From Pseudomonadota bacterium (lineage in GTDB: Bacteria; Bdellovibrionota_B; Oligoflexia; Silvanigrellales; Silvanigrellaceae), in the NCBI GenBank assembly GCA_039799905.1, contig JBDLRP010000017.1:1-28160 (forward strand): a stretch of DNA of 28,160 bases. Direction: 5' to 3'. This document shows positions 59 through 7,008 of the stretch, piece after piece (the first letter of the stretch is position 1; every line of letters begins with the position of its first letter). The notes below the pieces were generated by a model. That model did no database searches. It was not told where the DNA came from and worked only from the letters and a program-made list of their open reading frames with translations. A program made the translations under genes and the position numbers.

Positions 59-607
59 TTAGTGAGTGGTAGCGGCGATCATCATTGTGATCATGTGAAG
101 TGAGTATTTGTAGCAAGCCTGCCCTTCAAACTTGAAGGAGAAGCCCTCGATGCCGCGGCCTGAAATTGTGTACGTCGGTTTGATGAAATGGTTGTTGCGG
201 AAGTCTTCCGAGGTTACAACGGCTTTGACGTTTTCACCGTTGACGAGGAATGTGTACTCATTTTTCTGCCGATCGAGTCCGGCAAATTGAATGCTCGTTG
301 TTCTTGTGCCGTTCAATCCGCGGTGCTCGACAGTGCCGCCGAATTGTTTTTCTGTTTGGCGAAAGAGCGCCTTCACGTCTTGGCCGTCGCGGCGCATGAT
401 CAATTCACTTGTCCCCTGAGCCTCGTTGACGCTGCCCCAGATGACGAAATTCTTAACTGAACCAGCCATGGCGTGGTCATACACCTTGAGGTCGATGGCA
501 AGGTCACCCTTGATGGATGAAAGGTCATGGCCGTCTTCGGCGTGAGCTTTTCCAGAGTTGAGAGACGCAAGAACCATCATTCCGGAAACGAGCAGAGTCT
601 TCAGCAT
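59..607 (-). CDS. Secreted hypothetical protein, 182 aa
   Basis: Sec signal MLKTLLVSGMMVLASLNSGKAHA|E ending in AHA; AAAGGCGG upstream of ATG; beta-rich mature part; no recognisable family. Confidence 0.8.
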   Translation of the reverse strand: MLKTLLVSGMMVLASLNSGKAHAEDGHDLSSIKGDLAIDLKVYDHAMAGSVKNFVIWGSVNEAQGTSELIMRRDGQDVKALFRQTEKQFGGTVEHRGLNGTRTTSIQFAGLDRQKNEYTFLVNGENVKAVVTSEDFRNNHFIKPTYTISGRGIEGFSFKFEGQACYKYSLHMITMMIAATTH

Positions 608-790
608 TTTGACCGCCTTTGTTAAGGATTGAATTGTCTAATCTTTAAACAGTGCCTCTTTGTTTACAAGAAACGCCAACAGATTTCAATGTTTGCCACA
701 GCGGCGAAAGCTGCCACAGAGCGAAGATTTTAGTTGCGACACGGTGCTTTCGTTCATACCACCCATGCCGGCCTGGGAGGAGATGACGCT

Positions 791-3700
791 TTGCGGACAA
801 ATCTTTTGTATGTTTTGAGTTTCTTTCTACTGCTCCTGCAGTCGACGCCGGCCTATTCCTCCGATGGTTTTGGTCCGCTGTTGAAAAGCCAGATAGAGAA
901 TACGTTTTTTGAGAATGGCCGCGTTTCTTCACACAAGGTTGAATTGTTCCGTTTGAACGTCGAGACAGCGCAGCGCGAGACCTACAAAGGTCTTGTCGAT
1001 TACTACGTCCACGTTGGTCAGAAATCCCTCCAGGACGCAGAGAAGAAGGCTAGCTCGGCATCGCTGATGAAAGCCTTTGCGAGATTGAGCGCAGTCACTG
1101 AAAAGCTGAAAAAATCGGAAGGCCAAGCGTCCTACGACCTCGCTGCTTCTGCATTGCATCTTGGCTATACCGTACGTTCCGAAGGTCGCTGGATGGACTA
1201 CGATGAGATCAAAGGTTATGCAAAAGGTGTGTTCAAGCGTTACCAAGTGAAGCGCCGCAATGCGAATCAGAGCGAAGCATCCAACCTGTGGAATGCAAGT
1301 CAGTCGCGTTTTTACACGCAGGCCGAGCTGATGAAAATCAAGGCCGATGGAGGCGACGTATCCGCACTCAATCCGCTTGGAAATGGTACCTATTGGAACA
1401 ATTTGGATGTGTCAGGCCAACCCATGGCCCGCACGTATCAAAACTCCACGGGTCTCTATCAAGGGATTGATTTTGTGTTTCCGGAAGACGGTGCCACGGT
1501 TGATTTCGATGAGGTCAAGCGAGCACAAAGCCGCCCCAAGTTTGACGTCACTTGGAATGCGAATGGAAAGAAGAAAAAATTCAAACTGAAATTCTTGAGC
1601 GAGACTCACAGCGAAGTCACGGCTGCAACACTGATGTCCGCCTTGGGTTTCAACACTGACCCGTCAAGGCGCGTGAACAACATCCGAGTGCGTTTCAAAG
1701 ACGGAGAAAAGGCAGTTTTTCATCGCGATCTCGAGAGCTATTACGGCTACTGGGAACTCCAGCAGGCGATTGTTGAAGATGGCCGCGATGCACAGGGCGA
1801 CTATATTGTTTTTCGTGAGGCTCTGCTTGAAGGCAGAACTGATGATTTGATTCGCGTGGGCGCGTGGTCGTTCACTCAGAATGGTCATCCGGAGACACGC
1901 GAAGTCCGCGCAATGCCAATTTTTATGGTTTGGATCGCCAACAATGACATGAAGGAGTCCGGCCAAAACAAAATGATTCTGCGCTCGGATTCAGAGGCTG
2001 ATAAGGTTTACTTTGCCTCCGGCGATCTGGGTTGGGCATTCGGCAGCTTCATGTTTCCGGAAACGCCCTCGTGGTTTAAGTGGAACGTTGTCAAAGACGT
2101 CCGTCCTGATTCAGTTTCATTTAATTACTTGACGTGGCACTACAGCGATTTATTTCAGTTTACGACTTGGGATGACGCGCGTTGGATGGTGCGGCTCATT
2201 GCTCGACTCACACGCGGTCAGATTGTCAACGCTGTACGCGCTGGTCAGTGGGATCCATCCATTGAGAAGGTGCTGATTGAAAAGCTCATCGCCCGACGCA
2301 ATCAACTCGTTCGCACGTTTGGCTTGGGCAACGAGTTTCCAGACGTTAGTTTCAACGACACAGTTGCTCCCGCTGACCAACATGAAGATGCCCTGGTTTT
2401 GTTTCCGGACGGTTCGGCGGGCGGCAAAGGGCACGACAAGTTGCTAGACCTCGTACAGACGATGAGCCGTCCGGTTTTTGAGTATCTGCAGCCTTCATTA
2501 ATGAGCATTCAAACTGGAATCATCAATGCGGCGCTCGACAGAGCAGTGAAGCCCGTGACCGAAATCCGTCTGACAGGTGATGACCTTGCCGGGCTTGGAT
2601 TGCCGTTTGCAGCCGGTATGATTTTGAGGATTCACAGATCTATTGTCAGAAACGAACAACCTAAGTCGATGAATGAGCGTTTTCTGGTGCACGATCAGAT
2701 GGTCATCGGCTGGACTCTCGGCACCAATCTGGCTGGAGTGGGGAGTTCGCTCACGTACTACCGTAGTTTCAATTTGGTTTATCCTGTCCGCCAGCAGAGT
2801 GAGGGTGTTTTTAAGGCCGCTTATCTGCCCTCGTTGCTCATGCCCTATTCTCCCGGTCTTTTGAAACTGCCAAACAAGCATTCAATCCTGATTGAGGACT
2901 ACGTTGAAGGGCGCGGATCACTCAGTGTGTCGGGACAGGCTCCTGTCGTGCTGAGTGCGGAAGGCAGCCTGGCAAGGGTTTATCTCAAGCGTGTTTTGGT
3001 CAGCGACAGAGAAGACAAAAAGGTCAACATACTGATCGATAATTCTCATTACACCGAGCTGAGTGCAAAGGTTGCCGCTGCGTTGAAAGTTGGATTCGTC
3101 AGCATGAATTTTCCTTTCTTCGACGGTTCCTTAAGGAAGGGAAGCATCGACCGCGAGCTGTGGAGTCTTCCCGCCGACTCCCCCGAATCACGCCACCGCG
3201 CGCGAGGAGCCCTCAGTCTTGTTGCGAAGTCGATGCGCACGGATACGCTTCCGGCGCTTGCGAGCCGAGTTGAAATTGATGCCGACTTCTTGATGAAAAA
3301 GTGGGGATTCAACCTATTTGGGTTAGTGACGTCGCTCGACAGTAAAACGACCGCGGATGTTGAAGAAACCGATTATGTGCAGAGCAGCGAGACCCAGCGC
3401 AAACTGCAGATTGAAAATGTCAGCGAGAATTTCTGGAAGGCACCCATCTTCGACATTCAGGAGCGCGATACTGTAAAAAGCTTTTTTATGGGTGTTAAAA
3501 GTGAGGACGGCTCCTTCAACGACAGTGTTGTTGGACTCAACATCCGCCAGTGGGACTCGGCAACCACGTCACAGGAACTGAGGGACGATGCTGTAGTGTT
3601 GGCGCAGAAGGCGTCTGCAGATCCGAATTTTATCGTTTTCTCGCCGGCCCTACACACCAACAAGGATCAGTGGGGCGCAGTGATAACTATGGTCGACGTG

Positions 3701-4225
3701 CTGATTTATGAGTCGGGAGTGGAGAGGCTTCTGAGTCTCAGTGACGAACACTGGTGGAAGGAATTCACACGTCTCACCGGCATCGTACCGTCCAATCGGA
3801 GGGAGGGCACGATGCTTGCAAAGGACAGAGCCCTTTTGGATAACTTTAAACAATTTTTGAGTTCACTCGAGAAGGCCAAGCGTGCCCCTAATCAAAGGCG
3901 CCGTGCCGAGGCGATGACTCAAGCGATGGGGCAAACAGCTGTTGCCGTGAGCCTCACCTCCGGCGTCAAGGGCGATCTGGTTGGCGTCGTTTTGAGCCAG
4001 CTGAGCGTGGACAGCTACTTTCTCTCGGTGAAGATTTCATCGCCGATTTACAAACAGAACATTTTTCCGACTGAAAAGCCTCTTGTGAACAGGCGGGGAG
4101 TGTTGAAGTTCAAGGACGCGCGACTTCATGATTTTTCTTTGAATACCATTTCGGTCATTTATAACTTTTTCGACACACTGATCCCTGTCGGAAGCACCGT
4201 TCCGAGCATGGATTATCCATTTTGA
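791..4225 (+). CDS. Large exported protein (~1,144 aa) with an N-terminal atypical kinase-like (HipA/PI3K-like) domain and an unknown C-terminal region
   Basis: 3.4-kb ORF. Probable TTG start at 791, with GGAGG at 776-780 and signal peptide MRTNLLYVLSFFLLLLQSTPAYS; the ORF track starts it at 734. Motifs: AQSRPKF, KFKLKF, ETHSEV, WIANNDMKESGQN, GDLG. The CDS is certain; the kinase call is inference. Confidence 0.7.
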   Translation: MRTNLLYVLSFFLLLLQSTPAYSSDGFGPLLKSQIENTFFENGRVSSHKVELFRLNVETAQRETYKGLVDYYVHVGQKSLQDAEKKASSASLMKAFARLSAVTEKLKKSEGQASYDLAASALHLGYTVRSEGRWMDYDEIKGYAKGVFKRYQVKRRNANQSEASNLWNASQSRFYTQAELMKIKADGGDVSALNPLGNGTYWNNLDVSGQPMARTYQNSTGLYQGIDFVFPEDGATVDFDEVKRAQSRPKFDVTWNANGKKKKFKLKFLSETHSEVTAATLMSALGFNTDPSRRVNNIRVRFKDGEKAVFHRDLESYYGYWELQQAIVEDGRDAQGDYIVFREALLEGRTDDLIRVGAWSFTQNGHPETREVRAMPIFMVWIANNDMKESGQNKMILRSDSEADKVYFASGDLGWAFGSFMFPETPSWFKWNVVKDVRPDSVSFNYLTWHYSDLFQFTTWDDARWMVRLIARLTRGQIVNAVRAGQWDPSIEKVLIEKLIARRNQLVRTFGLGNEFPDVSFNDTVAPADQHEDALVLFPDGSAGGKGHDKLLDLVQTMSRPVFEYLQPSLMSIQTGIINAALDRAVKPVTEIRLTGDDLAGLGLPFAAGMILRIHRSIVRNEQPKSMNERFLVHDQMVIGWTLGTNLAGVGSSLTYYRSFNLVYPVRQQSEGVFKAAYLPSLLMPYSPGLLKLPNKHSILIEDYVEGRGSLSVSGQAPVVLSAEGSLARVYLKRVLVSDREDKKVNILIDNSHYTELSAKVAAALKVGFVSMNFPFFDGSLRKGSIDRELWSLPADSPESRHRARGALSLVAKSMRTDTLPALASRVEIDADFLMKKWGFNLFGLVTSLDSKTTADVEETDYVQSSETQRKLQIENVSENFWKAPIFDIQERDTVKSFFMGVKSEDGSFNDSVVGLNIRQWDSATTSQELRDDAVVLAQKASADPNFIVFSPALHTNKDQWGAVITMVDVLIYESGVERLLSLSDEHWWKEFTRLTGIVPSNRREGTMLAKDRALLDNFKQFLSSLEKAKRAPNQRRRAEAMTQAMGQTAVAVSLTSGVKGDLVGVVLSQLSVDSYFLSVKISSPIYKQNIFPTEKPLVNRRGVLKFKDARLHDFSLNTISVIYNFFDTLIPVGSTVPSMDYPF

Positions 4226-4226
4226 T

Positions 4227-5036
4227 TCACAGCTTGACCTTCAGCAGGTCAAGCTGTGTCAGGGTTGCGAGCAAATTCTGGAATTCTTCCGTCAAATCTG
4301 ATTCATCTGCTTTTTTCAAAGCCAATTCCGATTCCAGAATATCGACGGACGCTGCAACGCTCAGGCCATCAATCAGTGCCTGAGCGAATGGTTCGAATGG
4401 CTCTGCAATGGCGACGACCTGAAATTGCAAGTGATGGTTTTTACCGAGCAGAACAGCTCGTCTTTGAGTGAAAATAATCTCAGGGAGACTGCCGTTGTTG
4501 CTGTATGCGGCATGAGACCACGCTGCCGCGAGATCATGCGCGCCACTGGGCATCAAGAGTTGCGAACCGCTTCTGAGAAAGATGTTCTCGAGTGAATGTT
4601 GGTCAGTCGCCTGCGTGTCGTTGTCGTCGGTGTCGGTCAGAATGCTCCAGCGTCTGGTGCACAGGTCTGCGACGTCGGCAAAGAGCAACGCTTCACGCGA
4701 TTGGTTGGACTGCCTGAGAATTGCCGGCAGTTCGTCGGCGGATGAAGTGAGGTCTGCTGCACGAGGCGGCTGTGATTTAAAGAATCCTGCAAATACGTGA
4801 GCAACAAATTCTTTTCCGAATAGATTTTCGCATGCTTCAAAGATAGTTTCTGATAAATTTGCCGTGATGCGTCCCAAGTAGCTCGCCTGATATGTTTCAA
4901 GGCGGTGCAGGTACCTTCCATCCACTGAATTAGATAATAATGATTCTGCAGCACGCCGGTCGTCCAGAGCTGTGAGCCATTCCATGAAGTGGATTTGATA
5001 TTGCAAAAACGTCTTTGGATTTTCTGTTTCAGTCAT
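4227..5036 (-). CDS. DUF2063-like MNIO partner protein (BufC/HvfC-like), ~269 aa
   Basis: N-terminal pattern RLETYQASYLGRITANLSETIFEACENLFGKEF...FFKSQPP matches the DUF2063 style (RLxxY...L...FP...LG.F...PP). ATG at 5036 overlaps the DUF692 stop (ATGACTGA), indicating translational coupling. Confidence 0.75.
   Translation of the reverse strand: MTETENPKTFLQYQIHFMEWLTALDDRRAAESLLSNSVDGRYLHRLETYQASYLGRITANLSETIFEACENLFGKEFVAHVFAGFFKSQPPRAADLTSSADELPAILRQSNQSREALLFADVADLCTRRWSILTDTDDNDTQATDQHSLENIFLRSGSQLLMPSGAHDLAAAWSHAAYSNNGSLPEIIFTQRRAVLLGKNHHLQFQVVAIAEPFEPFAQALIDGLSVAASVDILESELALKKADESDLTEEFQNLLATLTQLDLLKVKL
4228..4258. terminator. Perfect 13-bp inverted repeat hairpin at a convergent gene junction (possible terminator or RNA-stability hairpin)
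   Basis: CACAGCTTGACCT-tcagc-AGGTCAAGCTGTG, beginning 2 nt after the + strand stop at 4225. No U-tract on either strand. Confidence 0.45.
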
Positions 5037-5838
5037 CGAGAACTCCGCACATTCCGAATTCCAGCTCGCGAAGAAGTTCGTCAAGTGTTGCACTCGGGTC
5101 GTCATTTTCGAGGATGACAGGAATATCCGTCCTCTTTGCTGCAACTGCTCGGCACATTTTCCAGACTTCACGACAGACTTTTCCATCGTGCGTGTCAAAC
5201 AGAAAATCCTCCCGCAGACTGTGTCCCGCAACATGAATCTGTTTGACGAATCCAAGCTCGAAACGCGCGAGCTCTGCCTGCGGATCGAGGGAGAAATTTA
5301 TCGCTGAGACGTAGACGTTGTTGACGTCAAGAAGAATTCCACAGCCTGTGCGGTCTGCTATTCGGTTTAGAAATTCTCCTTCGGGGATGGAGTCTTCTTT
5401 GTATGCGACATATGCCGAGACATTTTCGAGGCTCAATTGCCGGCCCAAGGTTTGCTGGACTTCATCGACGCGCCGCACAACGTGTTCGAGCATATGCTGA
5501 TTGCGGACCACGGGCAGAAGCTCGTAGCTCCTGAGCCCTGCGGCGCCGGTAAAGCAAAGATGATCTGAAACAACCTGCGGATTGAATAGCCTCACGAGTT
5601 CGAGCAAGCCCTCAAGATAGTGCTTACTCAGCGGTTCCATTCCGCCGATATTCAACCCGATGCCATGGAGTACGACGCAGGGTGACTTCGTCGCAAGCCG
5701 GAGCGTATGCTGCAACGCGGGGCCGCCGCGGTGGTGGAGGATATTGTCGGCCATGATCTCGAGGGGTGGAACGGTACTCAGCGACTGATAGTCGGAAAAG
5801 TGAGCGGGCCTGAGACCGAGACCCCACAGGGATTGCAT
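5029..5838 (-). CDS. DUF692 family multinuclear non-heme iron-dependent oxidase (MNIO; BufB/HvfB-like)
   Basis: GLGLRPAH, LHGIGLNIG, SDHLCF, LENVSAY, LLDVNNVYVS, IHVAGH, DTHD and ILEND cover the usual DUF692 iron ligands. RBS AAGGA. Confidence 0.92.
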   Translation of the reverse strand: MQSLWGLGLRPAHFSDYQSLSTVPPLEIMADNILHHRGGPALQHTLRLATKSPCVVLHGIGLNIGGMEPLSKHYLEGLLELVRLFNPQVVSDHLCFTGAAGLRSYELLPVVRNQHMLEHVVRRVDEVQQTLGRQLSLENVSAYVAYKEDSIPEGEFLNRIADRTGCGILLDVNNVYVSAINFSLDPQAELARFELGFVKQIHVAGHSLREDFLFDTHDGKVCREVWKMCRAVAAKRTDIPVILENDDPSATLDELLRELEFGMCGVLDD

Positions 5839-5964
5839 TTGCTGCGTCCTTTCGGATTTCTTACGATTTTACCGGACATTGCCTGACCGGGTTGGCGTAG
5901 CAGATTTAGAATGTTTGTTGAAGGATACATCGTTTGAATTGGGCGATTCTGAACGGAGATATTT

Positions 5965-7008
5965 ATGAATGCCATTTCTCGCGGGTTGATGCTTTTTGTG
6001 TTTCTTACCGCACTGCTTTGGCATTTCATGGGAATTTCGTTGGCCGCGAGCGGGTCGTCCGAGTCAGCTAAATACCGTCGCCCAACGGCTCAGGAGCTCA
6101 AGCTCCGGCTGACCGAAGAGCAGTACCGCTGCACGCAGGAAAATGGCACCGAGAAGCCCTTCCAGAATAAATATTGGAATCACAAGGAAGACGGCATTTA
6201 CGTGGATGTGGTCAGCGGCGAACCGCTGTTTTCTTCGTTGGCGAAATTCGACTCGGGCACCGGATGGCCGAGCTTCACCGAGCCTCTCGCGGATTCGGCT
6301 GTTAAGAAGCGGAACGATACCTCGTATGGCATGGTTCGCACGGAAGTCCGTTCGTCGGTTGCAGATTCGCATTTGGGTCACGTTTTCAATGACGGTCCTT
6401 CTCCGTCTGGATTGCGCTATTGCATCAATTCAGCCTCTCTTCGATTCGTTCCGCTGGCATTCATGCAGAGCGAGGGATACGGGGCTTACCTCTTTCAGTT
6501 TGCCGACAAATTGAAATGGGAGACGGCAACACTCGCCGGTGGTTGCTTTTGGGGCTTGGAAAAACTTTTGGGTGAGATGTCCGGAGTCGTCGAGACCCGT
6601 GTCGGCTATTCGGGCGGTGCAAAAAAGAACGTGACCTATGAGGATGTCAAAACCGGTCTGACCGGACATGCCGAATCGGTGCAGGTGCTGTTTGACCCGA
6701 AGAAAATTAACTACGAGCAGATTCTTCTCGCATTTTTTCGTTTGCATGATCCTACCACACGCAACAGGCAGGGAAACGACATTGGAACGCAGTACCGTTC
6801 TGCCATCTTTGCACATTCGGAAAATCAGCAGTCAACTGCCAAGAAGGTGATCGTTCGTGTCAACGCATCAAAGAAGTGGAAGAATCCGGTGGTCACGGAG
6901 GTTGAAAAATTTTCTAGTTTTACTGCTGCCGAGGACTACCACCAGAAATATTTGAAGAAGAATCCAAAAGGCTACACGTGCCACTTCGATAGAAAATTCA
7001 ATTTTTGA
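5965..7008 (+). CDS. msrAB: Bifunctional peptide-methionine sulfoxide reductase, MsrB-MsrA fusion, with N-terminal signal or anchor
   Basis: MsrB motifs [23 protein letters not shown]; MsrA motifs [38 protein letters not shown]. Hydrophobic N-terminus; GGAG RBS. Confidence 0.95.

Follow-up and report, generated by a model that had tools for sequence, protein, structure and literature searches.

Among the closest described systems is the buf2 cluster of Caulobacter vibrioides (BufA2-BufB2-BufC2; BUF_6/12Cys). According to the available part of bioRxiv 10.1101/2024.03.18.585515, an MNIO gene is followed there by that of a DUF2063 partner, the cluster is without DoxX, and the precursor has a Sec signal and six Cys; all these traits, down to the register of the six Cys, recur in the system described below. 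A SigF-type promoter, GTAACC-N16-CGAA, is given in the accessible text of PMC3511200. Bufferin precursors may also stand alone: in the portion of PMC12452194 available to us, sizeable proportions of them are reported as unlinked to MNIO genes, it is suggested that they are modified by an MNIO from a different locus, complete genomes with Buf2 but without an MNIO number 0 of 864, and protein-sized MNIO substrates are allowed for. A different parallel is offered by NGO1944-1948 of Neisseria gonorrhoeae, where DUF692 and DUF2063 genes are connected with msrAB. In the available text of PMC2954202, which agrees with the background given in the first-pass annotation of our locus, the connection is regulation by an ECF sigma factor, and the locus includes a periplasmic-protein gene and DoxX. 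Among the matches listed in our literature searches on bufferins in Bdellovibrionota and on distal MNIO precursors in Silvanigrella, none concerned this lineage's system; the supplements of PMC12452194 may list its proteins.

The window, that is, the whole 28,160-nt stretch of DNA analysed here, is the entire contig C17 of the source genome (G000). Judging from the nearest named loci, the lineage is probably Bdellovibrionota/Oligoflexia. The features needed for the comparison are these:

4227..5036, minus strand: DUF2063 partner (PME type 1, BufC-like), 269 aa; ATG at 5036, stop at 4227; PF09836
5029..5838, minus strand: MNIO (DUF692), putative BufB-like maturase, 269 aa; ATG at 5838, stop at 5029; PF05114
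5839..5964, no strand: divergent intergenic region of 126 bp between MNIO and msrBA, without a SigF-type motif
5965..7008, plus strand: msrB-msrA fusion, 347 aa; SelR, then PMSR; NF004042
7048..8166, minus strand: Lipase_3 gene, a context marker that directly precedes the MNIO gene in G008 and G010

Profiles, coordinates and alignment confirm what had first been read from this stretch, namely an MNIO with a conserved ligand set, coupled to a DUF2063-like partner and 126 bp away from msrBA. The MNIO belongs to its superfamily with a wide margin (PF05114, 260.9 bits against a cut-off of 25). The start of the partner gene overlaps the end of the MNIO gene by 8 nt (ATGACTGA), and its product reaches 33.1 bits for PF09836 (cut-off 27.2). 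A sequence search of the partner against PDB returned no meaningful match. The best Foldseek matches of its AlphaFold model (pLDDT 87) are TglI (8hci_A, 8hi7_A) and NGO1945 (3dee), so that its predicted fold would match that of the Neisseria protein. With a DUF2063 and an RRE-like domain, a length in the range of ~250-270 aa and a gene that follows the MNIO gene, the partner has the makeup of PME type 1. In an alignment of 21 family MNIOs, H58, H93, E138, D171, N174, H202, D215 and H217 are invariant, E244 is at least 90% conserved, and most of these nine positions align to identical residues in 3BWW, TglH and MbnB. We take this His/Asp/Glu/Asn set to be the iron ligands. The best NCBIfam family for the window MNIO is BufB (NF050167), although its 258.1 bits fall short of the equivalog cut-off of 310; HvfB (NF003818) scores lower still, 185 against a cut-off of 360. 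MNIOs encoded beside a precursor likewise stay under the BufB cut-off, with 258 for the one on contig C46 of the same genome and 254 for that of locus L219.

As had been noted before, the pair has no precursor, DoxX or ECF gene next to it: none of these families was found among the 19 window ORFs scanned against Pfam. Two short ORFs (5778-6029 and 5869-6024) were rejected as intergenic precursors: the CNPC that one of them reads is the shifted frame of the MNIO start, and the upstream DNA is common to one other genome (G003) only. In the intergenic region, sigma-70-like sites are at chance level (2 found, 2.1 expected), as are the results of a terminator scan of the locus. Elsewhere in the window, the 1163-aa product of 734-4225 (plus strand) starts with a signal-like segment and matches no Pfam or NCBIfam family, and a secreted-looking 182-aa protein is encoded at 59-607 (minus strand); homologues of both lie near the MNIO in G008 (69% and 66%).

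The proximity to msrBA, on which the idea of a compact, undescribed MNIO-MsrBA module had been built, does not extend to most relatives. The fusion itself is a bona fide bifunctional MsrB/A (NF004042, 378.7 bits against a cut-off of 330) with an N-terminus that by eye resembles a Sec signal peptide, and its orthologues (69-92%) are present in 11 of 13 genomes of the genus. Among the 10 genomes having both genes, MNIO and msrBA are adjacent in two, the source genome and its closest relative G003; in the remaining eight they are on separate contigs with differing flanking genes, and msrBA has several distinct neighbourhoods across the genus. In G000 and G003 the lipase gene is separated from the MNIO gene by msrBA. 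Since the lipase gene directly precedes the MNIO gene in G008 and G010, msrBA likely sits in an insertion; gene order thus presents it as the likely result of one recent event, a recent neighbour and no core part of the system. The lipase gene is itself found close to the MNIO gene at four of the 12 orthologous loci, which all belong to one subclade. Among 80 distant MNIO loci, three have an msr gene within 5 kb. As an observation apart, six of the 11 msrBA orthologues (L086, L089-L093) carry a long N-terminal extension, which in G008 is a SOUL haem-binding domain (PF04832).

The idea of a substrate encoded in trans, likewise envisaged in the first-pass annotation, does find support. Contigs C24, C31 and C46 each encode a small protein of one homologous group with a core of six Cys; the three are the top three matches of the BufA2 model in the genome, all below its cut-off. 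The C24 protein (G000:C24:6279-6677) scores 25.7 bits for NF050166 against a cut-off of 60 (E 1e-5). Nevertheless, the six Cys of the three proteins are invariant in an alignment with precursors of three relatives that do pass the cut-off. Judged by eye, the signal is of Sec type in the C24 protein, in combination with its six Cys, and of lipoprotein type in those from C31 and C46. Two further features mark the C24 protein: an insert of 19 residues between Cys3 and Cys4, predicted to be helical, and a Lys-rich beta tail. Its structural model (pLDDT 74) retrieved nothing from PDB with Foldseek at E <= 0.001. Against a new MNIO system, the first-pass annotation would have counted either a canonical BufA/HvfA precursor elsewhere in the genome acting as the substrate or an msrBA neighbourhood not conserved in relatives. 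The observations come up to both, or nearly so: the neighbourhood is not conserved, and bufferin-type precursors do exist on other contigs, where they are BufA2-like, score below the family cut-off and are putative substrates. The peptide classes proposed for a genome scan proved a dead end: PF10048 (DUF2282, the Buf1 precursor) has no match at E <= 1 in this 93.8% complete genome, a six-frame search for E[GA]KCG gave three matches but no credible precursor among them, and motif scans for EGKCG, DUF2282 and NPC repeats turned up no other credible precursor. A candidate at C44:37090 was discarded, as it amounts to a 17-residue match with E 0.03.

Besides the window MNIO, the genome encodes two others, making three in all: one on C46 as part of an 813-aa fusion and a divergent one on C21. 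Its two DoxX genes are on C46 and C26. The C46 fusion (G000:C46:64275-66716; L036:3776-6217) is perhaps more unusual than the window finding itself. A single 813-aa frame encodes an MNIO, a partner-like domain, then a signal-peptide-like stretch and a beta-rich outer-membrane-like domain. The fusion is kept in G003, G004 and G012 (802-813 aa), its gene is divergent from those of an ECF sigma, an anti-sigma-like protein and a lipoprotein precursor, and free homologues of its C-terminal part are found on C21 and C24. The C21 paralogue (G000:C21:38394-39284; L003) retains three of nine putative iron ligands and is followed by a weakly DUF2063-like ORF (37718-38476). With matches of similar strength in 12 of 13 genus genomes, it is a candidate for a conserved pseudo-enzyme. 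On C31 (G000:C31:40923-42003; L035), a gene for a YHS-domain protein and one for a lipoprotein Buf2-like precursor whose linker is long and of low complexity stand behind a SigF-type promoter, and this yhs-precursor pair is also found in G009.

How do the window enzymes and the C24 precursor relate across the genus? Window-type MNIOs (orthologues with 56-84% identity) are present in 12 of 13 genomes, the source genome included, and so are C24-type precursors. Both occur together in 11 of 13, on different contigs in every one of the 11. At all 12 window-type loci a precursor upstream of the MNIO is absent (one locus has just 105 bp upstream), and the bufA-bufB-bufC order, kept in other genera and in L219, is not found at them. 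One genome has the C24-type precursor with no window-type MNIO found (G005, a 91% complete MAG), and another has the MNIO with no such precursor found (G006, an 86% complete MAG); G017 and G021 are without both. In six genomes (G001, G002, G007, G008, G010 and G011) no precursor but the C24 type and, the divergent C21 type aside, no MNIO but the window type was found, and there the precursors keep all six Cys. Co-occurrence within one genus is, to be sure, largely shared descent.

Phylogeny adds a more specific connection. In a tree of 44 MNIOs, the window enzyme falls in a clade of 13 (100/96) consisting entirely of orphans, which is nested in a clade of 26 (100/99); 10 of the 13 non-orphan members of the latter have this precursor family within ~200 bp, five of these loci being ordered yceI-bufA-bufB-bufC. 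At L219, from an Oligoflexales MAG, a precursor gene is directly upstream of the MNIO gene, which is followed by that of the partner, all in one operon. The L219 MNIO is sister to the orphan clade or within it (98/97; 97/96 without the long G019 branch), and the L219 precursor is inside the C24 clade (99/95). By linking the sister of the window-type MNIO clade with the C24 precursor clade, this operon supports the notion of a split system. The partner tree supports the position of L219 weakly (84/79), and the L219 branch is long. The pairing is likely without being exclusive, since three genomes with MNIOs from different clades (G013, G022 and G024) have C24-clade precursors that stand alone. 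G019, with yceI directly before its MNIO gene and no precursor there, counts for little, as it groups with the orphans in the MNIO trees and not in the partner tree. Both halves are under purifying selection. When G000 is compared with G003, dN/dS is lowest in the C24 precursor, at ~0.04; the MNIO has ~0.12 and the partner, over its first 165 codons, ~0.19. The C31 and C46 precursors form a single clade (100/99). Among other arrangements, L047 (G020:C63) has a 590-aa MNIO-partner fusion after a truncated yceI, with the precursor on another contig, likely an independent split; L048, L050 and L130 have tandem precursor pairs ahead of the MNIO, and in L050 and L130 the second copy has four Cys only.

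Promoters provide a further handle. The pattern GTAACY-N15/16-CG[AT]A, modelled on the SigF site of PMC3511200, has 8 matches in the source genome, including two ahead of C46 genes, those for the precursor and the MNIO fusion, and one ahead of the yhs-precursor operon on C31. It is found upstream of all four C46-type precursors (with N15 spacing), 0 of 12 C24-type precursors, 0 of 11 orphan MNIOs (G002, with only 105 bp upstream, left out) and 0 of 10 msrBA genes (G005 left out). A SigF-like match with one mismatch before msrBA of the source genome was discarded since it falls inside the MNIO coding region, and a 6-mer comparison of upstream regions revealed no motif common to orphan MNIOs or to C24-type precursors. 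On the strength of the SigF-type promoter and their single clade, we assign the C31 and C46 lipoprotein precursors to the C46 MNIO/ECF cluster, which leaves C24 for the window MNIO. Against this pairing, no shared promoter motif joins the window operon and the C24 precursor.

Taken together, sequence comparisons lead us to think that the window pair is probably the BufB/BufC-like maturase of a split Buf2-type system and modifies the C24 precursor in trans. If Caulobacter bufferins are a guide, the C24 precursor would be bound in the cytoplasm by the DUF2063/RRE partner, some of its Cys would be converted to 5-thiooxazoles through oxidation by the multi-iron MNIO, and Sec would export the modified product to the periplasm, where it might chelate copper or another metal. 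In Caulobacter, the Buf2 product carries a mass shift of -18/-20 Da. The C46 MNIO of the source genome could act on the C24 precursor too. As for history, an ancestral bufA-bufB-bufC operon, often after yceI, would have split before the genus radiated, both halves would have been retained under purifying selection, and msrBA would have been inserted between the lipase gene and the MNIO gene later, in the G000/G003 lineage only. The system is therefore probably no new one, and rather a genus-wide split variant of a known copper-defence system. It departs from strict Buf2 membership on three tested points, namely the NCBIfam cut-offs, the gene order and the SigF promoter. Compared with Caulobacter buf2, as far as the available descriptions go, the precursor is on another contig throughout the genus and has the predicted helical insert and Lys-rich tail, neither half is preceded by a SigF-type promoter, and both proteins are below NCBIfam cut-offs. 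Given the insert and the loss of the SigF site, what the product does is less certain than its maturation in trans.

One way to read the altered regulation is that the same split system was rewired from an ECF/copper regulon to an oxidative-stress regulon. An insert-bearing Buf2 subfamily would have left the ECF copper regulon when its operon split, oxidative-stress promoters would have captured both halves, and a thiooxazole peptide matured in trans by its dedicated enzyme would serve in defence against peroxide or HOCl rather than in copper buffering, with the second MNIO serving the lipoprotein precursors. The maturase genes and msrBA do diverge from what would be a single promoter region. 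The C24 precursor gene has a corresponding arrangement, head-to-head with an OxyR-like LysR gene (G000:C24:5110-6677, L034; best match NF008361, 255 bits against a cut-off of 329; GHC...C motif), in 6 of 12 genus genomes. Both halves are also without the SigF-type motif, the 3 of 80 distant loci with an msr gene nearby point the same way, and so does the co-regulation described in the accessible part of PMC2954202. However, the six oxyR-adjacent precursors form one clade (95/89) and hence reflect one event, the msrBA adjacency is another single event in two close genomes amid neighbourhoods that vary in the genus, the 6-mer comparison found no conserved upstream motif, and in Caulobacter msrA was not found to be regulated with the buf loci, at least in the available text of PMC3511200. 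Nor does the Neisseria parallel carry over in kind, for here the genes are linked by lying side by side in two genomes, and both an ECF gene and its motif are absent. We therefore hold rewiring, both in outline and in its detailed form, to be improbable. We would say much the same of the possibility that the pair modifies another substrate, or all three precursors indiscriminately, with C24 unmodified or served by the C46 MNIO. In its favour, neither promoter nor adjacency ties C24 to the window operon, in G006 the pair is present and a C24-type precursor was not found, and PMC12452194, in the part available, leaves the modification of stand-alone precursors open. Yet six genomes lacking a C46-type MNIO keep the C24 precursor with all six Cys, the L219 operon connects both clades, and the motif scans gave no other credible EGKCG, DUF2282 or NPC-repeat precursor, which makes such an alternative rather unlikely.

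The substrates originally proposed, MsrBA itself or one of the secreted proteins nearby, for instance the lipase, fare worse. Their appeal lies in the head-to-head arrangement in G000 and G003, the signal-peptide-like N-terminus of MsrBA and the room that PMC12452194, in its accessible text, leaves for protein-sized substrates. Adjacency in just 2 of 10 genomes, and a lipase near the MNIO in one subclade only, argue against them. Moreover, MsrBA has four Cys only (56, 153, 194 and 339). Three of these are presumably in catalytic or resolving motifs (RYCINS, GCFW and GYTCH), where oxidation is expected to inactivate the enzyme, which makes MsrBA a poor candidate and its modification very improbable. 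That the pair is left over from a cluster that broke up, is now decaying and has lost its substrate is harder still to believe. Precursor, yceI and regulator genes are indeed absent from the locus, and in G020 yceI is truncated with the precursor not adjacent. Nonetheless, the frames are open, the active-site residues are invariant, the genes are kept in 12 of 13 genus genomes, and the dN/dS values of 0.12-0.19 by themselves already disfavour decay.

Our preferred reading, maturation of the C24 precursor in trans, provides the orphan pair with a candidate substrate that can be named and tested, and it takes away the grounds for proposing a new system that modifies MsrBA. It differs from the stand-alone precursors treated in the available part of PMC12452194 in two respects: across the genus it is the enzyme pair that lacks an adjacent precursor gene, and trees, promoters and the intact operon of a relative give grounds for matching these particular enzymes with one particular precursor. 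The C24-type proteins would represent a lineage-restricted Buf2 subfamily missed by the current BufA2 model, and for this reason neighbourhood-based mining would overlook them. Two questions that PMC12452194, as far as its text is available, leaves open are whether stand-alone precursors undergo maturation in trans and whether a single MNIO-partner pair acts on more than one of them; with two MNIO systems, three precursors and a predicted pairing between them, the source genome offers a clean test case for both.
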